A DNA stretch of 40,762 nucleotides from a virus: positions 1-40,762 of the IMG/VR virus record IMGVR_UViG_3300021225_000247; one strand, 5' to 3'. The translations under genes and the position numbers were made by a program. The notes below the pieces were generated by a model, which worked only from the letters and a program-made list of their open reading frames with translations, did not search any database and was not told the DNA's origin. How positions within the stretch are numbered: the first letter of the stretch is position 1; the number at the start of each line of letters is the position of its first letter. Positions 9,786 through 25,450 of the stretch are shown piece by piece.

Positions 9786-9826
9786 TTTGTTTTGTTTTTG
9801 TTGTGTGAAATATCGTTTCGTTGTTT

Positions 9827-9882
9827 CAGTACGTAAATTTAATATTAAATATTGAAATAAAAAAATATTTACAAAAATAAAT
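9827..9882 (-). promoter_or_regulatory. Conserved AT-rich promoter-like repeat, copy 1 of 3
   Basis: cagtacgtaaatttaatattaaatattgaaataaaaaaatatttacaaaaataaat aligns with 11031..11088 and 15644..15691. All three lie directly upstream of minus-strand genes. Confidence 0.6.
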
Positions 9883-9892
9883 ACAAAATAAT

Positions 9893-10735
9893 TTAAAATT
9901 CGTCTCTTTTGCCTTTCAATGGGTAATGATTCTTTTTCAACTCCCAGAACTCAGCCATTAACGAGGCCCTGAATTTATAATCTCGATCCGTGTGATACCC
10001 TGACTTGTACACGCATTTACAGATACTTTCGTATAACCGTATGCCTTTCAACTTGTAATTTGCCTTTTTGCATTCTGCGTACCTTCCAGAATTTAAAACG
10101 TCTGCCCAAAGTTTCATCCCTTCTTCGGTGGAACTTGCACTCATGAACTTGGCGCGAATATATTTGTCACGTCCGCGAATGACCTCCCGTGTTTTGTACG
10201 TCACCGACTTTTGATTTTTCAAGGCCTTCACGCCGCCAGCGTTGGCGTGCTTCCGCCAAAGTTCGGTTTCAACGCCAGAGGTCGTTGCCTCAATGATAAA
10301 GAAGGAATAGATCATGGATACTGGAAAATCGGTAAGGTGGTGTACGTTCATAAGCATGGATTCATAGGAATAGGCAAGCCATATACGACGCATTTTAAAC
10401 AGGTCGATTTTATCGAGGTTTCTGAATCCTTTGCCTTCCAGATTTCGCCTTAATTCATGAATATTCATTTTTCGTATTTCCCAGCCGTATGAACGTGATC
10501 CATAGGCTTCTTCATTTATTTCTTTACTTTCTTGTTTTGCAGGAAAGGTAAGAGTAGTAATTTTGTGAACGTACACCGTGTCACGCTCAATAATGGGGAC
10601 AAATGAGGTATAATTATATTGAGTGTTAATTGGGGAATAAATCAACCCAACCACGAAGGCAACGCCAACGCCTGCCGCAACTTGGTACGGAAGGCGCTTG
10701 TTTTGAGGAACGTAGTCAATTATTTTGTCTTTCAT
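9893..10735 (-). CDS. Membrane-anchored glucosaminidase-like (GH73-like) peptidoglycan hydrolase (putative)
   Basis: N-terminal hydrophobic segment LPYQVAAGVGVAFVVGLIY. FFIIEATTSGVETELWRKHANAGGVKA resembles the ..E(S/T)G.G.S.L....N.FGIK core of the Glucosaminidase domain. Confidence 0.45.
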   Translation of the reverse strand: MKDKIIDYVPQNKRLPYQVAAGVGVAFVVGLIYSPINTQYNYTSFVPIIERDTVYVHKITTLTFPAKQESKEINEEAYGSRSYGWEIRKMNIHELRRNLEGKGFRNLDKIDLFKMRRIWLAYSYESMLMNVHHLTDFPVSMIYSFFIIEATTSGVETELWRKHANAGGVKALKNQKSVTYKTREVIRGRDKYIRAKFMSASSTEEGMKLWADVLNSGRYAECKKANYKLKGIRLYESICKCVYKSGYHTDRDYKFRASLMAEFWELKKNHYPLKGKRDEF

Positions 10736-10790: not shown

Positions 10791-11009
10791 TTAATAATTT
10801 ACTCTCCTTGCGCCTACTAATTGGTTTTCATTAAACTTACATTCCTGTACTGCTTTCATGAAGCATTCATGATAATCTTTGCCATCGGTTACAATGAATG
10901 AACATTTGCTATTTCTTCCTTCTTTCAATGCACCTGTTTTTGTTACTGCTTGTTTTACACTTCTGTGACGAGTGTATAAAAATCTCCAAGATTGAATTTC
11001 GTTTGTCAT
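10791..11009 (-). CDS. Hypothetical protein (72 aa), a monocistronic unit between a promoter repeat and a terminator
   Basis: ORF flanked by the repeat at 11031..11088 and the terminator at 10757..10783. Confidence 0.5.
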   Translation of the reverse strand: MTNEIQSWRFLYTRHRSVKQAVTKTGALKEGRNSKCSFIVTDGKDYHECFMKAVQECKFNENQLVGARRVNY

Positions 11010-11030
11010 GATTGATATATTTTTGTTTTT

Positions 11031-11088
11031 TCAATACGTAAATTTAATATTATTTATTTGAATAAAAAAATATTTACAAAAATAAATT
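11031..11088 (-). promoter_or_regulatory. Conserved AT-rich promoter-like repeat, copy 2 of 3
   Basis: tcaatacgtaaatttaatattatttatttgaataaaaaaatatttacaaaaataaatt is nearly identical to copy 3. Confidence 0.6.
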
Positions 11089-11115
11089 AAAAAAAAATGT
11101 CCGCATCGAAGGACA
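11089..11115 (-). terminator. Weak intrinsic terminator abutting promoter repeat copy 2
   Basis: 5-bp stem tgtcc (11098..11102) / ggaca (11111..11115), followed on the minus strand by nine T residues. Confidence 0.45.
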
Positions 11116-11424: not shown

Positions 11425-11672
11425 GATTTTTCTTTTTTTTGTTTTAAACGATATTCTTTTTGGTAGGCTTTTATCTTTTCAGCATTTTTAAGCCTAAATC
11501 TTTTATGTTTGTCGTATAACAATTCTGGCTTTTCTATTTTGTTTTCATGATACCTTTTTTTCTTGTTTTCTAAATTTTTTAAACGCTTTCTTTCTTTTTG
11601 GTACGGTGACATATTTAAATAATATGCCTTCATATATTCCGATTTACGGGCTTTCTTTTCTTCGTCTGTCAT
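11421..11672 (-). CDS. Lys/Tyr-rich small basic protein; paralogue-like to 19542..19766
   Basis: Repeated K..Y...N.EK / YQKEY motifs are shared with the plus-strand ORF 19542..19766. Confidence 0.55.
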   Translation of the reverse strand: MTDEEKKARKSEYMKAYYLNMSPYQKERKRLKNLENKKKRYHENKIEKPELLYDKHKRFRLKNAEKIKAYQKEYRLKQKKEKS

Positions 11673-12208
11673 GGCTGCTTGTTTAAATAATTCTTGGAGG
11701 CAACTGGATCCTTTCCCTGATTTGAATACTTTGCATCTTGCTTTTTATCATACGAAATATTTGGCATCTCCGAAATATCCTGATAAGTAAGCTGAGCGAT
11801 TTTCATTCCTGGGTAAATCTTGAGCGGCTGAACCGTCAAAAGTTCTAACGTCCAATGCCCTTTAAATCCAACGTCGCCAAATCCTGCGGTAACGTGGACG
11901 GCAAGTCCTAATCTTCCTAAAGAACTTTTGCCCTGGATAATTGGCACGTGTTTCATGGTTTCCGTATATTCCACGGTTGAGGCAAGGTAAACAATGCCAG
12001 GTTGCAAAATCAAACCTTCATCGGGAATAATCATTGGTGCAGATGGGTTTTTCTTTCGCACATCTAAAACTCTTTCTGTGTATAAAATAAGCGTGTTAGA
12101 TAGCGTTAAATCATAGCTATTAGTACCTAAGTTATTGGGATTAAATGGCTCAATAACGATATTACCTTCGGTGATTTCGTCAATGATGGTTTTGTCGGTT
12201 AAAATCAT
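11669..12208 (-). CDS. dcd: dCTP deaminase (dCTP deaminase/dUTPase superfamily)
   Basis: MILTDKTI..., NSYDLTLSN and GKSSLGRLGLAVHVTAGFGDVGFKGHWTLEL match Dcd-family core motifs. Size is typical at 179 aa. Confidence 0.8.
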   Translation of the reverse strand: MILTDKTIIDEITEGNIVIEPFNPNNLGTNSYDLTLSNTLILYTERVLDVRKKNPSAPMIIPDEGLILQPGIVYLASTVEYTETMKHVPIIQGKSSLGRLGLAVHVTAGFGDVGFKGHWTLELLTVQPLKIYPGMKIAQLTYQDISEMPNISYDKKQDAKYSNQGKDPVASKNYLNKQP

Positions 12209-15393: not shown

Positions 15394-15612
15394 TTAGCTC
15401 CATGATTCTTGAACTTTTTTAATATCCTGGTCTAACTTGTTTAGATACTCATTTGCCATTCTTGCAACGATTGGCATTTTGTTTGCCTCCCATTCTTCGT
15501 CAGTGCAACCCTGAGATTTTACCGCGTGGTAAACAGTTTTTACAAAAGCAGCATCGGCTACTAATTCGTTAACCTTGTCAAAGTGGTTTTTTAATTCATT
15601 CCATGTCATCAT
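15394..15612 (-). CDS. Hypothetical protein (72 aa), first gene after promoter repeat copy 3
   Basis: ATG-initiated ORF 32 nt downstream of the repeat. Confidence 0.5.
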   Translation of the reverse strand: MMTWNELKNHFDKVNELVADAAFVKTVYHAVKSQGCTDEEWEANKMPIVARMANEYLNKLDQDIKKVQESWS

Positions 15613-15643
15613 GATAATTGGTTTTTGTTATTTTCAATACGTA

Positions 15644-15691
15644 AATTTAAATATAATTATTTGAATAAAAAAATATTTACAAAAATAAATT
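15644..15691 (-). promoter_or_regulatory. Conserved AT-rich promoter-like repeat, copy 3 of 3
   Basis: tcaatacgtaaatttaaatataattatttgaataaaaaaatatttacaaaaataaat is nearly identical to copy 2. Confidence 0.6.
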
Positions 15692-15724
15692 AAAAAAAAG
15701 TGAGGCATAATTTCTATACCCCAC
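15692..15724 (-). terminator. Weak intrinsic terminator abutting promoter repeat copy 3
   Basis: On the minus strand, stem gtgggg / cctcac (one G-U pair) is followed by eight T residues. Lies just after the stop of CDS 15749..16483. Confidence 0.45.
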
Positions 15725-18284: not shown

Positions 18285-18421
18285 ATTATTTTGTTTTTGT
18301 TTTTCCTTTTTTTCCACGGCGGATTCCCAATCGCGCTTTGCATTTCCATGTATTTTACCACGGCTGGCGGTGTTTCGTATGTCAAAACCTTGTCCAAGGC
18401 TGCTTTAATGAAATTTGCCAT
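18281..18421 (-). CDS. Small hypothetical protein (46 aa, MANFIKAALDKVLTYETPPAVVKYMEMQSAIGNPPWKKRKNKNKII)
   Basis: Translated by hand. The ATG begins one nt after the methyltransferase stop, and the ORF fills the gap in the ORF track. Confidence 0.4.
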   Translation of the reverse strand: MANFIKAALDKVLTYETPPAVVKYMEMQSAIGNPPWKKRKNKNKII

Positions 18422-18422
18422 A

Positions 18423-18998
18423 TTACTTTCCTCCCAGTTTAACGAACAACAATCCCCAAGGCGTTACCTCCGTTGTTTCCCTAAGTAAGTCAAAACCGTG
18501 GCGTTGAAACAAGGCTACCCATTCGTCTTTTTGTTTTAAGTTAATATGACCCCATTCAATGTCGAAGGCTGGATCGGCTGAGGCGTAAGGCGTACTGGTG
18601 AAATAAAAATATTTGTTGCAGGCTTTGTAAAGAATCGGCATTACTTTATTTATCTCTTCGTCGGTCATGTGTTCAAAAACCTCAGTAGAGTAAATGGCAT
18701 CGTAACTGCCATGCGTTTTAAGTTCACCAAGTAAATATCTTCCAGGCTCAACGCCCTTGCTTATCGCAAATTCCCTTTCATAAGGGTTAATGTCGTAACC
18801 CATGTAATTATACAAGCCAACGCGCTGACAAGCGGAAAGAAAGAAACCAAGTCCAGAGCCGAACTCGAAAACACTTTCGCAGCCCAGACTTTGCAAAACC
18901 TTTGCGCCGTTGGTATGCAAGTCAACCAGGGGTTCATAGTCGCGCGTGGTAAAACCAAGCTCAACGGATTTGTCAAAAAAGAATTTGTTATCAATCAT
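18423..18998 (-). CDS. Class I SAM-dependent methyltransferase (Methyltransf_11/23-like); first gene of the leftward arm
   Basis: VFEFGSGLGFF (motif I), GYDINP (motif II acidic residue) and YDAIYSTEVFEHM (motif III region). Confidence 0.7.
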   Translation of the reverse strand: MIDNKFFFDKSVELGFTTRDYEPLVDLHTNGAKVLQSLGCESVFEFGSGLGFFLSACQRVGLYNYMGYDINPYEREFAISKGVEPGRYLLGELKTHGSYDAIYSTEVFEHMTDEEINKVMPILYKACNKYFYFTSTPYASADPAFDIEWGHINLKQKDEWVALFQRHGFDLLRETTEVTPWGLLFVKLGGK

Positions 18999-19041
18999 TT
19001 GCTTTTGTTTTTGTTACCATGTTCCTGAGGGCAGGAATAAG

Positions 19042-19109
19042 GTTACAAAGTTACAAATATATTCTTAAAAAATATTTTAAATTTAATAACAAATAAATTA
19101 TTATCTTTG
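19042..19109 (+). promoter_or_regulatory. Divergent control region: tandem gttacaaa repeat plus a TAnnTTTG box upstream of ssb
   Basis: gttacaaa occurs at 19042..19049 and 19050..19057. tatctttg at 19102..19109 matches the Bacteroidota -7 consensus TAnnTTTG and lies 17 nt upstream of the ATG at 19127. Confidence 0.45.
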
Positions 19110-19126
19110 CAGAAAGAAAAAATAAA

Positions 19127-19540
19127 ATGATAAAATTAATAGTTGCAGGTCGCATTGGTCAGGATGCTGAAATAAAATCGGTTGGCGATACAACCGTTTG
19201 CTCTTTCTCCGTGGCACACACGGAAAAAACATTTGGAAACAATCCCACGGAAAAAACCGTTTGGGTCACTTGCTCAATGTGGGGTGAGCGTGGTTCCAAA
19301 CTTGCACCGCATTTGGTAAAAGGTACGTATGTTGTCGTAGAAGGAACAGGCGGCGTAAATGCGTACATGAAAAATGGAGAACCGACGGGGATTATTTGTT
19401 GCATGGTGAATAATATCGAGTTTGGAGGCAAGGCAACGCCGGGGGAGAACACGTCTGGCGGTTATGTTAATCCATTGACGAATTCAGTTGCACAGGAATT
19501 AAAAAAAGAATTAAACGCCGACGAACCATTCCCATTTTAA
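19127..19540 (+). CDS. ssb: Single-stranded DNA-binding protein
   Basis: OB-fold-type N-terminus (MIKLIVAGRIGQDAEIKSVGDTTVCSFSVA...VWVTCSMWGERG) and an acidic/aromatic C-terminal tip ADEPFPF. Confidence 0.85.
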   Translation: MIKLIVAGRIGQDAEIKSVGDTTVCSFSVAHTEKTFGNNPTEKTVWVTCSMWGERGSKLAPHLVKGTYVVVEGTGGVNAYMKNGEPTGIICCMVNNIEFGGKATPGENTSGGYVNPLTNSVAQELKKELNADEPFPF

Positions 19541-19541
19541 T

Positions 19542-19766
19542 ATGACACCTGAGTATCAAAAGCAGTATCGGGAAAATATGACCGAGTACCAAAAGCAAAA
19601 GCAAAAGGAATATTTCATGCTTTATCACCAAAACCAACCACCTGAAAAGAAAGCTGAAAAAAGGTTAAGAAATCAAGCATGGTATCAAGCGAATAAGGAG
19701 AGGGTAAATAAATACCAAATGGAACGTTATTACAGATTAAAAGAACAAAAAAATGAATGTGAATAA
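19542..19766 (+). CDS. Tyr/Gln/Lys-rich small protein; paralogue-like to 11421..11672
   Basis: EYQKQYRENMTEYQKQKQKEY ... YQANKERVNKYQMERYY shares the Y..N.E..N/K.YQ periodic motif. Confidence 0.5.
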   Translation: MTPEYQKQYRENMTEYQKQKQKEYFMLYHQNQPPEKKAEKRLRNQAWYQANKERVNKYQMERYYRLKEQKNECE

Positions 19767-19926
19767 ACAAACGCCCGCCGTGTTTTCGGTAAGTTATCGG
19801 GACGAAAAAATAAGAAAGAAGTTGTTGGACTTACAATTTCAACTCTGGAAGGAAACTAATGTTAAACACTCAATGGAAGAGGTATTAAATATTTTATTGG
19901 ATAATTACCAAAAGCACAATAAATGA
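19753..19926 (+). CDS. Small hypothetical protein (57 aa), possibly ribbon-helix-helix-like
   Basis: Translated by hand: MNVNKQTPAVFSVSYRDEKIRKKLLDLQFQLWKETNVKHSMEEVLNILLDNYQKHNK. ATGA overlap with the next gene at 19923..19926. The strand-helix-helix pattern is only a guess. Confidence 0.35.
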   Translation: MNVNKQTPAVFSVSYRDEKIRKKLLDLQFQLWKETNVKHSMEEVLNILLDNYQKHNK

Positions 19927-20927
19927 GGTTAGGCATTGTAACCAATTTAACCAGTCCAACAACCGATTACTACCGTTCGGTAAATCCCTTCATGCGGCTT
20001 CGCTCTCAGATGGTAAATCTTCATATTACGTATTTGAATCCTGAGACGGTAAAGTGGTACGATTTTTACGACGTTGACGTTATCCTCTTCCAACGCCCCA
20101 ACGGCGAGGGAATGTTATCCATGGTTGCGGAGGCAAAGAAGATGGGTAAAAAAATCATTCTTGACCACGACGATCTTTTGCATGAGGTCAACGCCGCAAA
20201 TCCAGCGTCGGCACACTTCGGGAAACCTCAGGTAAAAGAATCGGTTGAAAAGGCTTTTAAGTATGCTGATTTTATCATTGTATCAACACCATTTCTCAAA
20301 GAGTTTTATAAGCAATTCTTTGACGAAAGCAAGATAATGATTATCCCAAACGCCATTGACTTTCAAGTGACGCCCCTTTGCCCCGTGTCACCTGATAAGC
20401 TGGAGGCAAAGATTAAACGCGTGTTGTGGCGTGGAAGCATGACACACATTGAGGACTTGAAAACGGTTGATACATTTTGGCATTATGTGAGCAGCCGCAA
20501 GGACACCGAGGTTGCATTCATTGGTATCCCTGAATGGCTCGGAAAAACATTGTATCCAAATGTTAAAGTCATACCGTGGAACAATTCTTTGTTTCAGTAT
20601 TTCGAGCTGATAAAAAACAGTGCGGCACATTACGCCGTGTTCCCTTTGACAAACGACAATTTTAATCAAAGCAAGTCAAATAACTTTGCGATGGAAATGT
20701 TGGTCACAGGTTGCGTTCCTTATGCACCGAAGGAAATTACGGAGTTCAATGTTCCAGGGGTTCGGTTGTACGAGGGCAACGACGATTTGACAGGGCAATT
20801 TAAACAGGACTTGGAAAATGATAGTAATTATTTCAATCATTTGCAGGCTGGAAGGAAATGGCTTTTGACTGAGCGAAATTTGCTTACCGTCAACAACAAA
20901 AGAAAACAAGTGTTAAAAGGATTATGA
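19923..20927 (+). CDS. GT-B-like glycosyltransferase (putative)
   Basis: Two Rossmann-like halves. The first has MRLGIV.., DVILFQRP.., KKIILDHDDLL, ADFIIVSTPFL and IIPNAID. The second has RVLWRGSMTHIEDL, VAFIG and PLTNDNFNQSKSNNFAMEMLVTG, which resembles the PL....FN..KS..K..E motif of a GT-B family. Confidence 0.5.
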   Translation: MRLGIVTNLTSPTTDYYRSVNPFMRLRSQMVNLHITYLNPETVKWYDFYDVDVILFQRPNGEGMLSMVAEAKKMGKKIILDHDDLLHEVNAANPASAHFGKPQVKESVEKAFKYADFIIVSTPFLKEFYKQFFDESKIMIIPNAIDFQVTPLCPVSPDKLEAKIKRVLWRGSMTHIEDLKTVDTFWHYVSSRKDTEVAFIGIPEWLGKTLYPNVKVIPWNNSLFQYFELIKNSAAHYAVFPLTNDNFNQSKSNNFAMEMLVTGCVPYAPKEITEFNVPGVRLYEGNDDLTGQFKQDLENDSNYFNHLQAGRKWLLTERNLLTVNNKRKQVLKGL

Positions 20928-21499
20928 AGCTAAAGGATATTAAACCAAACCCAAACAACCCACGGGTCTTGAGGGATGAGAAATTTCAAAAGCTAAAGCA
21001 AAGCATCACCGAGTTTCCTAAGATGCTTTCGCTTCGCCCTATGGTCATTGATGAAAACAACGTCGTTTTGGGTGGAAACATGAGGCTTCGCGCCTTGCAA
21101 GAACTTGGATTTACAAACGTGGATGAAGCATGGGTAAAACGAAGCAGCGATTTAACCGAGGAGGAAAAGAAGCGCTTTATCATTGCGGACAATGTAGCCT
21201 TTGGCGAATGGGACTGGGACACACTGGCGAACGATTGGGACGTGGTGGACTTGGAAGCGTGGGGGTTGGAAATACCGCAGTTTAAAGCGGTTGACGTTGA
21301 TTATTCAATACTTGATGACGATGACGTTTCCCAGCAACTTGAGGACATGACCGACGGGGTAAAGAAGGCAATACAAATAGAATTTGAAGCCGAACATTAC
21401 GAAGAGGCTTTCGCATTGGTTAAATATTGGAGAGGCATGAAGGCATACGTTGGAGGTATGATAATGGAATACTTAAAGGCTGAAAAAGATAAATTATGA
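20924..21499 (+). CDS. ParB/Srx N-terminal domain protein with an acidic C-terminal region
   Basis: IKPNPNNPR, KLKQSITEFPKMLSLRPMVIDENNVVLGGNMRLRALQELG matches ParB N-terminal-domain boxes, including the GxxR arginine patch. Confidence 0.75.
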   Translation: MKLKDIKPNPNNPRVLRDEKFQKLKQSITEFPKMLSLRPMVIDENNVVLGGNMRLRALQELGFTNVDEAWVKRSSDLTEEEKKRFIIADNVAFGEWDWDTLANDWDVVDLEAWGLEIPQFKAVDVDYSILDDDDVSQQLEDMTDGVKKAIQIEFEAEHYEEAFALVKYWRGMKAYVGGMIMEYLKAEKDKL

Positions 21500-22194
21500 A
21501 AATGATTCAAGATTCTATTAATGGAATTAAATTTTATCATCGGGAGGGTTTTTCAGACTTAAAAACATTCAAAGAGGTTATTGGTAATAAAGTTTATGAG
21601 AAAAAAGGAATGACAATAAAGCCAAATGAAAGATGGATGGATTGCGGCGGAAACGTTGGTGCATTTACTTTGTTAGCTTGTTCAAAAGGGGCTGAGGTTA
21701 CAGTTTATGAGCCTGACCCTTTCAACTGTCAAATGATTGAAGAAAATTTAAAGCTAAATGGATTTAAGGCTAATATCAAGGAAGCGGCTTTGGTTCATAA
21801 TGATGTGAAAGAATTAATTTTATTTATTGGGAATAATAATAATGTATGGAGAAATTCCATCGTTAAAAAATGGAATAATAAAGGAATTAAAGTTGCGTGT
21901 TTAAACTTTGATGAAGAGGCGAAAAATTTCGATTGTTGCAAGATGGACATTGAAGGGGCTGAAATGTTGATATTAGAAAACACGAAAAAAGTATTTTCTA
22001 AATTGGTTTACGAATGGAGTTTTGATATTGACGATAATTTGCCGAGGTTTTGGAGTATCATTGAAAAACAAAAAAAACAATACTCAGACTTAAAAGACGT
22101 TGGCAATACGGCAAAGTTTAAAACAAGAGATTACAATACATGGCAGAAAAGTTGGTTTCCAGCGTGTACAAATGTTTTTGCATTTAATCAATAA
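21496..22194 (+). CDS. FkbM-family SAM-dependent methyltransferase
   Basis: WMDCGGNVGAFTLLAC (glycine-rich SAM loop), VYEPDP and the hallmark KMDIEGAE motif. Confidence 0.75.
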   Translation: MKMIQDSINGIKFYHREGFSDLKTFKEVIGNKVYEKKGMTIKPNERWMDCGGNVGAFTLLACSKGAEVTVYEPDPFNCQMIEENLKLNGFKANIKEAALVHNDVKELILFIGNNNNVWRNSIVKKWNNKGIKVACLNFDEEAKNFDCCKMDIEGAEMLILENTKKVFSKLVYEWSFDIDDNLPRFWSIIEKQKKQYSDLKDVGNTAKFKTRDYNTWQKSWFPACTNVFAFNQ

Positions 22195-22196
22195 TT

Positions 22197-22976
22197 ATGA
22201 AAAGAGTAGATTTAATCAAGGTTGAACACAATGTAAAGATTGGCGACAAATGCGAATACATTGAACCAAATGTTATAGAGGATTCTATTTTCTATGCAGA
22301 CGGTGAGGCAATAGGTTTTTACCTTACCAAGATGCCTGAGAAAATGTGCAAGTTGGCAGATTTAGCAAACAAGGAGTTTAAAAGTAGCAATGTTCCAAAA
22401 TCTAAAATGAATAGGGGGACGAAAAAACAAGCAATTGCAAAAGGTCAAATATGGATATCTCAATTAAGTACAATTATTGGTAGTTGCGCTCCAAAACCAC
22501 ATATGCGAAGACCATATCCAGCAATGTCAAGTGTTCACGGAGCAAAAACCGCTAAAACATTTATAAAAGCAATGTTGCTTTTGGCAAAGGAAAGCGAAGA
22601 ACTTATAAAAGAAATTTTACCAAAGCAATACGAAAAGCAAGTTGAATTATTTAAAGACGTGCCAGAAAAATGGAGGTTTGCCAATTTGTTTACAAGTTCT
22701 ATTTCAAATTATAATATTTCAGCACCTTTTCATAGGGATACGGGAAACATCGTCGGGGCAGTAAATGTAATAATCTGCAAAAAGTTTAATTCAAAAGGCG
22801 GTGATTTACATATACCCGATTACGGAGCAACTATTGGGCAGCAAGATAATTCAATCCTTGTTTACCCAGCGTGGCGCAACGTTCACGGGGTGACGCCAAT
22901 AATTCCAACCTTAGAAGGTGGTTATCGTAATTCGTTGGTATTTTACCCCTTAAAAGCCTTTTTAGGCTTAGAATAA
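22197..22976 (+). CDS. TET/JBP-family 2-oxoglutarate/Fe(II)-dependent nucleic-acid base dioxygenase
   Basis: HRD at 22731..22739, distal His codon at 22884 and Arg codon at 22926. The C-terminal block NVHGVTPIIPTLEGGYRNSLVFYPLK parallels the human TET2 block LHATTP...RISLVFYQHK. Confidence 0.8.
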   Translation: MKRVDLIKVEHNVKIGDKCEYIEPNVIEDSIFYADGEAIGFYLTKMPEKMCKLADLANKEFKSSNVPKSKMNRGTKKQAIAKGQIWISQLSTIIGSCAPKPHMRRPYPAMSSVHGAKTAKTFIKAMLLLAKESEELIKEILPKQYEKQVELFKDVPEKWRFANLFTSSISNYNISAPFHRDTGNIVGAVNVIICKKFNSKGGDLHIPDYGATIGQQDNSILVYPAWRNVHGVTPIIPTLEGGYRNSLVFYPLKAFLGLE

Positions 22977-22993
22977 CAGCACAGTAACAGCAC

Positions 22994-23311
22994 ATGGCAG
23001 CAAAGGATATAATAAAGCATAAGTTTCCCAAAGGACAATCAGGCAACCCCAACGGTCGCCCCAAGAAACTCCCAGCCCTTGATTTGATAATGGCAAATGT
23101 CATGGGGCAGGAAAAGGACGGTATCACGGCGGCTGAGGCTATTATCATGAAGCTAAGGGAACAGGCGGCAAAGGGTGATATCAAGGCGGCTCAGTTGCTC
23201 CTTGACAGGGCATACGGGAAGGCAAAGCAAAACATTGATATTACGACGCAGGGGGAAAAGGTGACCGTGCCAACGATTATATTTACAAAGGAAAATAAGC
23301 AAGGTGAATAA
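22994..23311 (+). CDS. DUF5681-like protein, putative small terminase subunit
   Basis: The KGQSGNPNGRPKK motif is typical of DUF5681 proteins found next to large terminase genes. Function is inferred from position. Confidence 0.5.
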   Translation: MAAKDIIKHKFPKGQSGNPNGRPKKLPALDLIMANVMGQEKDGITAAEAIIMKLREQAAKGDIKAAQLLLDRAYGKAKQNIDITTQGEKVTVPTIIFTKENKQGE

Positions 23312-23972
23312 ATTTATAAGCGAGGTAACAAATGAGGATTGTATGGAAGGCATGGCACGGTATCCAGATAAATACTTTGATTTGGCAATTGTTGACCCGC
23401 CTTATGGGATAGGGGAGGATGGAAGTAAAAATTATACAAGAGGGAAAAACGCAACCGCAAAAAATTATAAACCATTTTATGGGAATGATTTAAACCCAAT
23501 GAGTATTGAATATTTTAATGAGTTAAAACGCATTTCAAAAAATCAAATTATCTGGGGAGCAAATCATTTTATAGAAAATATATCTCATTCAAATAGTAGT
23601 TGTTGGATTGTATGGGATAAAGACAATACGGGAGATTTTGCTGATTGTGAACTTGCTTACACTTCATTTAAAACGGCAGTAAGAATGTTTACTTTTCGAT
23701 GGAATGGAATGCTTCAACAGGATATGAAAAATAAAGAATATCGAATTCACCCTACTCAAAAACCCATCGCTCTTTACAAATGGCTTTTAAGCAACTACGC
23801 AAAGCAAGGCGATAAAATACTTGATACCCATTTGGGAAGTGGAAGCAGTCGAATTGCAGCTTATGAAATGGGATTTGATTTTACAGCTTTTGAATTGGAT
23901 ACGGAGTATTTCGAGGCTCAAGAAAAACGATACAAGGCGCACATTGCGCAACTTAAACTTGAATTGGTATAA
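23304..23972 (+). CDS. DNA amino-methyltransferase, beta class (N6-adenine most likely, N4-cytosine possible)
   Basis: LAIVDPPYG (motif IV) precedes HPTQKP and ILDTHLGSGSS (motif I), which is the beta-class order. Apparent GTG start at 23304 overlaps the upstream stop. Confidence 0.85.
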   Translation: MNKFISEVTNEDCMEGMARYPDKYFDLAIVDPPYGIGEDGSKNYTRGKNATAKNYKPFYGNDLNPMSIEYFNELKRISKNQIIWGANHFIENISHSNSSCWIVWDKDNTGDFADCELAYTSFKTAVRMFTFRWNGMLQQDMKNKEYRIHPTQKPIALYKWLLSNYAKQGDKILDTHLGSGSSRIAAYEMGFDFTAFELDTEYFEAQEKRYKAHIAQLKLELV

Positions 23973-25201
23973 TGGAGATAAAAGTCAGTGACAAATATCA
24001 AGCCCTCTGGCAACCGCGGACGCGTTACTTCCTCATCACTGGGGGGCGTGGTTCGGCAAAGTCCTTTACCGTGGGGCTTTGGGCTTGTAATATGTTATTG
24101 GCTTATAAAAATTGGAAGGTGCTTTTTACAAGGTACACGTTATCAAGTGCGAATATTTCCGTTATCCCTGAGTTCAGGGAAAAGATTGACTTGCTCGGCG
24201 TGGGTGACGAATTTAATATGACCAACGCGCAAATAAGTCACAAGGTGACAAAGAGTGAAATAATCTTTTCAGGAATCAAAACAAGTTCAGGAAACCAAAC
24301 GGCAAAGTTAAAATCGATACCAGCGTTAAACGTGTTTATCGTTGATGAAGCTGAAGAATTTGTAAGCGAAAAAGACTTTAATACCATTGACGAATCAATT
24401 CGTATTCCTGACACGCCGAACATTGTTATTCTTGTCATGAACCCGCAGGACGTGGAACACTGGATTTGGAAGCGTTGGTTTGAAAAGTCGCATCGCATGG
24501 AGACGATTGACGGACACGCCGTCCCGATAAGTACGCATGAGGATATAACACACATTCATACAACGTACTTGGATAACTTCCATAACTTAAGCGTTGATTA
24601 CATTGCAAAGATTGAGGCAATAAAAACAAAGTCACCTGAGGCATACGCGCACAGGTTTCTTGGCAAATGGCTGGATAAGAAGCAAGGCGTTGTATTTCCA
24701 AATTGGGTTGAAGGTGAATTTGATACAAGCCTACCTTTTGCTTACGGGCTTGACTTCGGCTTCTATCCCGATCCCTTGGCATTGGTTAAAGTTGCGGTTG
24801 ATACCACGGCAAACAAGATTTATGTAAAGGAAATTATTTACGAACAAAGCCTTTCATACGACATGGTTTTAACAAAGATTAGGAATAGCATTGAACTTGA
24901 TGCCATGGTTGTGGCTGATACAAGCGAACCACGGTTAATTGATGCGCTTACCTCGAATGGTATCAATGTGCATAAGACGGAAAAGTATGCTGGCAGCGTG
25001 GTGGATGGGATTAAGAAAATGTCTGATTTTACCATTGTGGTCACAGAGGAATCGTATAATTTAAAATTTGAATTAAGAAATTATATTTGGAACGATAAGA
25101 AATCTTCAACGCCAATGGACGCGGATAACCACGGGATTGACGCGCTTCGCTACGGGTGCATGAGGCTTTTGGAAGGTTCAGACGTATTGGCATTTAATTA
25201 A
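23972..25201 (+). CDS. terL: Terminase large subunit
   Basis: Walker A ITGGRGSAKS and Walker B VFIVDEAEE. C-terminal nuclease motifs GLDFGF.PDP, VVADTSEPR and DADNHGIDALRY. Confidence 0.9.
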   Translation: MEIKVSDKYQALWQPRTRYFLITGGRGSAKSFTVGLWACNMLLAYKNWKVLFTRYTLSSANISVIPEFREKIDLLGVGDEFNMTNAQISHKVTKSEIIFSGIKTSSGNQTAKLKSIPALNVFIVDEAEEFVSEKDFNTIDESIRIPDTPNIVILVMNPQDVEHWIWKRWFEKSHRMETIDGHAVPISTHEDITHIHTTYLDNFHNLSVDYIAKIEAIKTKSPEAYAHRFLGKWLDKKQGVVFPNWVEGEFDTSLPFAYGLDFGFYPDPLALVKVAVDTTANKIYVKEIIYEQSLSYDMVLTKIRNSIELDAMVVADTSEPRLIDALTSNGINVHKTEKYAGSVVDGIKKMSDFTIVVTEESYNLKFELRNYIWNDKKSSTPMDADNHGIDALRYGCMRLLEGSDVLAFN

Positions 25202-25207
25202 AAAGAT

Positions 25208-25450
25208 ATGACACCAAAGGAAAAAGCAAGGGAATTGCATTTAATGATTTACGACACATTGCCCTATCGGCACGTGGTAACAGGTGAATACGACAGTTGG
25301 CTGGAGGCAAAGAAGATAGCCTTGCTTTTGACTGACATAATTATAAGCAATAATCAAAAGATTTGCGGACAACTTGGCTCAGACGTGGATGAAAACACGG
25401 CGTACTGGTGCGAAGTGGAGCTGTATTTAAAAAACATAATAACGAAATGA
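25208..25450 (+). CDS. Hypothetical protein (80 aa)
   Basis: ATG ORF in the late string. Confidence 0.5.
   Translation: MTPKEKARELHLMIYDTLPYRHVVTGEYDSWLEAKKIALLLTDIIISNNQKICGQLGSDVDENTAYWCEVELYLKNIITK

Follow-up and report, generated by a model that had tools for sequence, protein, structure and literature searches.

A ParB–FkbM–TET/JBP gene cassette in a phage contig and the probable oxidation of thymine in phage DNA

Introduction

What does a phage TET/JBP dioxygenase oxidise when no C5-cytosine methyltransferase accompanies it? The question is raised by the IMG/VR virus record IMGVR_UViG_3300021225_000247, whose positions 1 to 40,762 make up the stretch analysed here (hereafter the window). 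At 22197-22976 the window encodes a TET/JBP-family enzyme and, as the initial annotation had described, it also carries three methyltransferases, which Pfam and NCBIfam assign to Methyltransf_23, to FkbM/Methyltransf_21 and to the DPPY-type N6_N4 enzymes. That annotation offered three readings: the enzyme oxidises thymine in DNA and thereby initiates a base-J-like, glycosylated 5-hydroxymethyluracil (5hmU); it depends on 5-methylcytosine (5mC) installed by the host; or one of the non-canonical methyltransferases provides the 5mC.

In general terms, the literature has already answered the question for phage TET enzymes that lack a C5-cytosine methyltransferase, and the answer is thymine oxidation. 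Direct oxidation of thymine, which had been regarded as new for phages when the locus was annotated, was already published (O'Toole et al., preprint 2025, bioRxiv 10.1101/2025.08.14.668559; PNAS 2026, PMC13229309) and is established knowledge. What may be new is the step after oxidation, and the widespread FkbM variant of the system is the uncharacterised part worth following. Here, we argue that the window enzyme very probably oxidises thymine, as ParB-associated dioxygenases do, and not 5mC, and that the FkbM-family methyltransferase encoded next to it may derivatise the oxidised methyl group of thymine, most likely by O-methylating 5hmU.

A TET/JBP dioxygenase without a C5-cytosine methyltransferase

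The 259-aa product of 22197-22976 (plus strand; TET in the following) matches Pfam Tet_JBP (PF12851) over residues 110-250 with E=2.2e-11 and 43.7 bits, above the cut-off of 34.9 bits. Its database homologues number 3914, with identities of 78-93% among the 120 best-scoring. The HxD...H...R residues, with H179, D181 and H230 as iron ligands and R244 binding 2-oxoglutarate, are invariant in 36 homologues, and a profile of these homologues places them on H1382, D1384, H1881 and R1896 of human TET2. Furthermore, S246, V248 and Y250 fall on TET2 S1898, V1900 and Y1902, the motifs of the human enzyme being HRD...H...RxSLVFY. TET2 H1904, which we take to be a cytosine contact, aligns to L252 of the phage protein, an observation to which we give little weight. 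The AlphaFold2 (AF2) model of TET has a predicted local distance difference test (pLDDT) value of 65 and a predicted template modelling score (pTM) of 0.71, and its catalytic core is poorly modelled. Searching the PDB with this low-confidence model by Foldseek, we found that every top match belongs to the TET family (CcTet at E=5.9e-4, NgTET1, CMD1 and TET2), at template modelling (TM) scores of only ~0.4 because the core of the model is poor; a PDB sequence search with TET alone as query gave zero matches. Altogether, 22197-22976 encodes a genuine TET/JBP-family Fe(II)/2-oxoglutarate dioxygenase (5-methylpyrimidine dioxygenase), as had been predicted. Phage TET/JBP proteins of this kind are mislabelled in public annotation, where RefSeq and PHROG 6059 call them 'queuine tRNA-ribosyltransferase'.

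The lack of a C5-cytosine methyltransferase partner, which had prompted the question of the substrate, was confirmed by Pfam, tblastn, profile and motif searches. PF00145 had zero matches among window open reading frames (ORFs) of at least 200 aa. With M.HhaI and three phage C5-cytosine methyltransferases as seeds, tblastn of the window gave a best E of 1.0. A small hidden Markov model (HMM) of these enzymes, run against the six-frame translation of the window, reached a best E of 0.53; as a control, it recovered divergent phage C5-cytosine methyltransferases at 1e-29 to 1e-151. The motif series FxGxG..PCQ..ENV..QxRxR was not found in the window by regular expression either. Hence, the profile searches, which the initial annotation had named as the check for a cryptic enzyme, detected none in the ORFs of that size or in the six frames, and the window, a whole metagenomic contig of 40,762 nt, encodes zero C5-cytosine methyltransferases. 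The longest contig in the 100%-identical FkbM cluster likewise has 40,762 nt. Completeness of the contig as a genome is unproven, since no terminal repeats were found in it. Among 211 TET-bearing loci, a C5-cytosine methyltransferase occurs in 10 and never adjoins TET, lying 2.5-9 kb away with 2.5 kb as the minimum distance (L005 is an example).

ParB, FkbM and TET form a conserved cassette

TET is part of a tight three-gene cassette, which we found again in more than 200 viral loci. Two genes upstream lies the gene of an acidic ParB-like protein (20924-21499, plus strand; 191 aa, isoelectric point 4.6), which the initial annotation overlooked and on which the classification of the system hinges. 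The protein has a ParB_N-type N-domain and a conserved C-terminal region; it scores below the cut-off of Pfam ParB_N (E=2.3e-4, 21.6 bits vs 26.3 bits) and matches PHROG 620, 'ParB-like partition protein', at E=5.5e-26. Judged by its size of 191 aa only, it would lack a helix-turn-helix DNA-binding domain. The slot between ParB and TET is occupied by a gene for an S-adenosylmethionine-dependent methyltransferase of the FkbM family (21496-22194, plus strand; 232 aa). The three genes belong to a packed plus-strand run (19923-25201) that reads, in order, glycosyltransferase, ParB, FkbM, TET, DUF5681 protein, N6_N4 methylase and large terminase subunit; stop and start codons overlap from the glycosyltransferase through ParB to FkbM, and 2 nt separate FkbM from TET. 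A promoter and terminator scan of 18300-25400 stayed at chance level.

An IMG/VR search with the FkbM protein returned 198 relatives, of which the best 80 loci were examined. FkbM adjoins TET in all 80, and the order ParB-FkbM-TET on one strand is found in 77, the remaining 3 ending at a contig edge. The linkage also holds for distant members of the FkbM clade (30-45% identity), which were taken from the matches among 1.84 billion cluster representatives. TET adjoins FkbM in 64 of these 66 loci, following it in 52 and preceding it, as a divergent TET in the order ParB-TET-FkbM, in 12. ParB stands directly upstream in 77/80 close and ~63/66 distant loci. In total, 144 of 146 loci have FkbM and TET as neighbours, and the pairing holds from 30 to 97% identity, in both gene orders and in two sub-lineages of TET. 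Cultured phages have the cassette as well: in the Prochlorococcus siphovirus MED4-184, a ParB/FkbM/TET triad with 36%, 57% and 49% identity to the window proteins lies directly upstream of the terminase, and TET is matched in the same way in the Prochlorococcus siphoviruses P-HS2 and MED4-117. Neither a C5-cytosine methyltransferase nor a homologue of the window glycosyltransferase was found in the complete 38.3-kb GenBank genome of MED4-184. Its record (NC_020847.1, 15790-17914; our L001 and L149) labels the ParB-like protein 'DNA methylase' and the FkbM gene 'hypothetical'.

Different payloads occupy the slot between ParB and TET

Surveying the 80 closest TETs (73-84% identical), we found the slot filled by a TET-associated glycosyltransferase (TAGT, PF20691) in 31 loci, by FkbM in another 31 and by other payloads in 13. 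These other payloads comprise a set of GATase (GATase_6), GNAT, amino-acid:DNA transferase (PF18724, above cut-off) and small P-loop protein, which goes with TETs 74-81% identical to that of the window, as well as a 338-aa protein with a dNK-like P-loop protein, and TAGT with a sulfotransferase. The last combination is seen at L126:947-2247, where TAGT is followed by a Sulfotransfer_2 protein (E=4e-16) inside a ParB...TET cassette, which may point to DNA modified with a sulfated glycosyl group. Of these payloads, the amino-acid:DNA transferase and the kinase-like proteins are part of the known toolkit of 5hmU hypermodification.

The TETs beside these different payloads can be nearly identical. 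The window TET is 89% identical to the TET of a ParB-TAGT-TET cassette, and the ParB-like protein is 61% identical to the ParB beside a TAGT-TET pair (L002). The highest identity between an FkbM-linked and a TAGT-linked TET is 96.6%, and that between an FkbM-linked TET and one with another payload is 90.5%. At up to 96.6% identity, FkbM-linked and TAGT-linked TETs should share substrate and product. TAGT cassettes are free of any methyltransferase, and the substrate of their TET would therefore be a base already present in DNA, namely thymine. Furthermore, the TAGT profile has zero matches in the 146 FkbM loci (1.29 Mb in total) and none in the window; since FkbM and TAGT never occur together, they appear to be alternatives at one position of a pathway.

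FkbM carries the hallmarks of its family. It exceeds the cut-offs of Pfam Methyltransf_21 (PF05050; E=2.1e-11, 44.7 bits vs 22.7 bits) and of NCBIfam TIGR01444 (58.4 bits vs 37.7), and its AF2 model is of good quality (pLDDT 82.6). The viral structures that match this model best are FkbM methyltransferases, at TM scores up to 0.76, and FkbM domains fused to a glycosyltransferase also occur among viral proteins. Across 40 aligned clade members (30-58% identity), we see the signature K-x-D-x-E-G-x-E, with K149, E153 and E156 invariant and D151 and G154 nearly so, together with the clade-specific motifs WRNS and EWSFD. None of the cysteines is conserved in these 40 members (C50, C78, C135, C148 and C224 all vary). 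Since a catalytic cysteine nucleophile is needed to methylate pyrimidines at C5, we rejected FkbM as a cryptic C5-pyrimidine methyltransferase. FkbM-family enzymes are O-methyltransferases, and many of them methylate sugars. Glycosyltransferases, kinases and sulfotransferases, the enzymes that share the slot, all act on hydroxyls as well, and O-methylation of the 5-hydroxymethyl group made by TET is hence the most economical inference.

Relation to published systems

Two published groups of phage enzymes bear on the substrate. Phage 5mC dioxygenases are always encoded at most 5 genes from a co-oriented C5-cytosine methyltransferase (Burke et al. 2021, PMC8256090). Phage TET-like enzymes with no such neighbour are post-replicative thymine dioxygenases; only ~6% of phage TET-like contigs carry a C5-cytosine methyltransferase at all (O'Toole et al., PMC13229309). 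According to the same work, the enzymes of one subclass act on double-stranded DNA only together with a short ParB homologue encoded with them, and genes for GATase, P-loop kinase and amino-acid:DNA transferase accompany this subclass. ParB-associated phage 5mYOX enzymes, as the authors call the dioxygenases, produce 5hmU in E. coli, and some of them require the cognate ParB (PMC13229309).

The window system resembles this ParB-dependent subclass most (5mYOX clade C1, 'E' in the preprint; e.g. 5mYOX176/ParB176). Both combine a TET/JBP enzyme with a short ParB homologue made up of an N-domain of the nucleotide-binding type and a C-terminal domain; an obvious DNA-binding domain is missing, as judged by size for the window protein. 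Both also lack an adjoining C5-cytosine methyltransferase, lie next to terminase genes and have sister cassettes with GATase, amino-acid:DNA transferase and P-loop genes. They differ in the FkbM payload and apparently in length: the published ParB-dependent enzymes have an extended C-terminus, whereas the 259-aa window TET has no evident C-terminal extension. From these described features and from gene context, membership of the window TET in the subclass is plausible but unproven, and we take the ParB-like protein to be a likely activator or partner of the dioxygenase. The ParB-independent clade C2 (e.g. 5mYOX89 and 5mYOX97) likewise comprises phage TET/JBP enzymes that act on thymine without a C5-cytosine methyltransferase and are often linked to glycosyltransferases and methyltransferases; however, these enzymes of ~290-300 aa have no neighbouring ParB, whereas ParB is strictly co-conserved in the window cassette.

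Another published group is that of the phage 5mC dioxygenases paired with GpC-specific C5-cytosine methyltransferases (clades A/B, PMC8256090). They share the superfamily and the HxD...H...R active site with the window TET, and their post-replicative products are hypermodified further by glycosyltransferases or kinases, but there the co-oriented C5-cytosine methyltransferase is within those 5 genes and in the window there is none. In kinetoplastid base J, made by JBP1/2 and the base-J glucosyltransferase, a TET/JBP enzyme likewise converts thymine in DNA to 5hmU and the hydroxyl is then derivatised. The window TET, in contrast, has neither a J-binding nor a SNF2 domain, and its dedicated second enzyme is a methyltransferase instead of a glycosyltransferase; base J has its closer counterpart in the sister ParB-TAGT-TET cassettes. 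Compared with the FkbM O-methyltransferases at large (PF05050/TIGR01444, such as FkbM of FK506 biosynthesis and sugar O-methyltransferases), with which it shares the class-I Rossmann fold and the K-x-D-x-E-G-x-E signature, the phage clade is compact, has its own motifs, stands nearly always beside ParB and TET/JBP and usually has no glycosyltransferase nearby.

'O-methyltransferase (FkbM), Methyltransf_21' is recorded in 6.2-7.0% of 5mYOX contigs, with no functional work on it (bioRxiv 10.1101/2025.08.14.668559, Table S7). In a literature search, we found no report that links FkbM to TET/JBP, describes 5-methoxymethyluracil in the DNA of phages or deals with DNA modification in P-HS2.

Proposed pathway and alternatives

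With this in mind, we propose that TET would act after replication on thymine of the phage's own DNA and convert it to 5hmU, probably with the help of the ParB-like protein, as in the published ParB-dependent thymine dioxygenases. FkbM would then act on the hydroxymethyl group just formed and most likely O-methylate it, which would give 5-methoxymethyluracil; alternatively, the product may be the O-methyl derivative of thymine in a more oxidised state. In the sister cassettes, TAGT or the kinase/amino-acid-transferase set would take the place of FkbM. The outcome would be a protective modification that is applied just before packaging. We lean somewhat towards the complete pathway, in which FkbM acts on the oxidised methyl group of thymine. 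That the TET-linked FkbM clade is specifically a DNA 5hmU O-methyltransferase, giving 5-methoxymethyluracil, is a tentative assignment with less than an even chance of being correct; FkbM may turn the TET product into a DNA base for which we found no prior report.

Several points weigh against this proposal. The base-contact residues of TET are unreadable because the core of its model is poor. With a C-terminus only 9 residues past Y250 of the conserved RxSxxFY motif, the protein is short and may thus fall outside the ParB-dependent subclass. Among the published ParB-paired enzymes, many give little or no 5hmU in E. coli. The characterised phage enzymes also oxidise 5mC in vitro (PMC13229309), and host-installed 5mC is accordingly a possible secondary substrate of TET. 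As for FkbM, its PDB matches by Foldseek are generic class-I nucleic-acid methyltransferases only (TYW2, RumA, fibrillarin and Trm5, also TrmA) and are therefore uninformative on the substrate, which we assign from gene context.

The alternatives concern either the fate of 5hmU or the origin of the substrate. It is rather unlikely that the modification of DNA ends with 5hmU or a further oxidised form and that FkbM methylates a protein, a small molecule or another position in DNA. Such a course would agree with the lack of a chemical tie between FkbM and 5hmU, with relatives in which ParB and TET are separated by other genes or possibly by none, and with giant-virus FkbM-domain proteins that have no detectable DNA methylation product (PMC7253447). 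Yet the presence of the FkbM clade beside TET in 144 of 146 loci and its mutual exclusion with TAGT in the slot are hard to explain without a common pathway. A base-J-like route, with 5hmU made by TET, glycosylated by the GT4-like enzyme of 19923-20927 and finally O-methylated on the sugar by FkbM, we consider unlikely. The overlapping codons and the 2-nt gap do make the four genes resemble one operon, the arrangement glycosyltransferase-ParB-FkbM-TET recurs on two further contigs (L008 and L009), and sugar methylation and fusion to glycosyltransferases are both known among FkbM enzymes. However, the glycosyltransferase is found in 79 sibling loci with unrelated modification modules and has TET in 2 of them only, a strong match to it occurs in just 2 of the 146 FkbM loci, none of which has TAGT, and MED4-184 has the triad with no homologue of it. 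Hence, the substrate of FkbM must be independent of a glycosyltransferase.

Regarding the origin of the substrate, a 5mC dioxygenase fed by a Dcm-like enzyme of the host, or by a phage C5-cytosine methyltransferase encoded elsewhere, appears very unlikely to us. A host with such an enzyme is conceivable, related loci do in 10 of 211 cases have a C5-cytosine methyltransferase gene at a distance, and in vitro activity on 5mC, as cited above, would suit this reading. Against it stand the absence of a C5-cytosine methyltransferase from both the contig and the complete MED4-184 genome, its rarity among the 211 loci, where it never adjoins TET, and the published gene spacing of true 5mC systems (PMC8256090). 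Moreover, TETs 74-81% identical to that of the window pair with amino-acid:DNA transferase, GATase and P-loop genes of the thymidine-hypermodification toolkit, and the window system is associated with ParB like the published thymine dioxygenases; nothing calls for host-supplied 5mC. We give hardly any credence to the remaining idea, in which TET oxidises 5mC, or some other methylated base, that was first made by FkbM or by a different non-canonical methyltransferase. The position of FkbM immediately upstream of TET and co-oriented with it, like that of C5-cytosine methyltransferases in published 5mC systems, would fit, and so would the m5U RNA methyltransferases RumA and TrmA among its structural matches. 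This idea is contradicted by the lack of a conserved cysteine in the clade, by TETs up to 96.6% identical in methyltransferase-free TAGT cassettes and by the reversed order TET-FkbM in 12 loci; neither the N6_N4 gene nor the Methyltransf_23 gene is a conserved companion of the cassette. Of the three readings offered at the outset, both sources of 5mC are hence disfavoured, and from the first one thymine, backed by the TAGT cassettes and the ParB context, is retained as the best-supported substrate, without the glycosylated, base-J-like product.

If the proposed O-methylation of 5hmU holds true, MED4-184, P-HS2 and MED4-117 would carry 5-methoxymethyluracil in place of some thymines, and the O-methyl group would act as a minimal 'cap' in lieu of a sugar or an amino acid. 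It would also provide a new natural DNA base together with an enzyme pair for site-selective ether formation in DNA. In a near-identical cassette, a dedicated methyltransferase clade replaces a glycosyltransferase, and it does so in hundreds of environmental phage contigs as well as in cultured cyanophages. The proposed role of FkbM is directly testable because a host-phage system exists, namely Prochlorococcus MED4 with MED4-184 or P-HS2.

The modification island and other features of the window

The GT4-like glycosyltransferase gene (19923-20927, plus strand; 334 aa), whose stop codon overlaps the start of ParB, provides context for the cassette only. Its product matches Pfam Glyco_transf_4 below the cut-off (E=3.1e-4) and the glycosyltransferase family PHROG 7162 at E=2.1e-25. 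Homologues 62-96% identical occur in the 79 IMG/VR loci mentioned above, with FkbM-TET in 2. The sibling loci (L150-L228; the window counterpart is 19923-23311) have a common backbone of SSB, glycosyltransferase, a variable part, DUF5681 and TerL, with a terminase ~92% identical to that of the window. As a lineage backbone gene with TET in 2 of 79 loci, the glycosyltransferase was rejected as a base-J-type partner of TET; it stays constant while the modification module varies, and a base-J-like glycosylated 5hmU is therefore not supported at this locus.

The modules found between the glycosyltransferase and DUF5681 in the siblings include a ParB_N-N6_N4 methylase fusion; QueC, QueD, a QueE-like protein and GTP cyclohydrolase I (FolE); a Mom-family protein; a C5-cytosine methyltransferase; a PAPS-reductase/DUF3440 protein; and TAGT without TET. 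In the last type, seen in 7 loci, TAGT follows ParB (L153:2534-3316, PF20691 at E=1e-38) in an island that has no TET/JBP gene to supply its hydroxymethyl substrate. From these comparisons, the packaging genes are adjoined by a hypervariable DNA-modification island, which is seen as a recombination hotspot of anti-restriction modules. Sibling phages swap whole DNA-modification pathways beside their terminase genes, which makes the island useful for studying how restriction and anti-restriction compete in their arms race.

Downstream, the island is bordered by the DUF5681 gene (22994-23311, plus strand; 105 aa, Pfam PF18932 at E=8.3e-17), which follows TET in many related loci and, by its position, probably encodes the small terminase subunit. 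The gene of the DPPY-type N6/N4 DNA amino-methyltransferase (23304-23972, plus strand; 222 aa, Pfam N6_N4_Mtase at E=6.7e-14, weak CcrM-like NCBIfam matches) is inserted between DUF5681 and the large terminase subunit (23972-25201, plus strand; Terminase_3 at E=9.5e-29 and Terminase_3C at E=9.2e-15), its GTG start overlapping the DUF5681 stop. Most relatives have no gene there, and the 80 FkbM loci contain no full-length homologue of this methylase and two partial matches only. Over a stretch of 57 nt, the gene shares 89.5% identity with methyltransferase genes of Flavobacterium phages.

The third methyltransferase, a profile match to Methyltransf_23 (18423-18998, minus strand), sits on the opposite strand from the cassette, across a divergent intergenic region. 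Homologues 26% identical to it are found directly upstream of ParB in L112 (L112:7686-8204), and L122 contains one as well (L122:694-1212); Methyltransf_23 may be another accessory of TET cassettes.

Neither a thymidylate synthase nor a dUMP hydroxymethylase was found in the window. A dCTP deaminase is encoded at 11669-12208 (minus strand; TIGR02274 equivalog at 121 bits, Pfam DCD at E=6e-41) and may raise the dUTP/dTTP supply for an AT-rich genome with modified thymine. Finally, the early region of the minus strand contains three copies of an AT-rich intergenic repeat of 94 nt (9801-9894, 11006-11099 and 15609-15702; 79-85% identical to the reference copy), which are probably common early promoter or operator elements.

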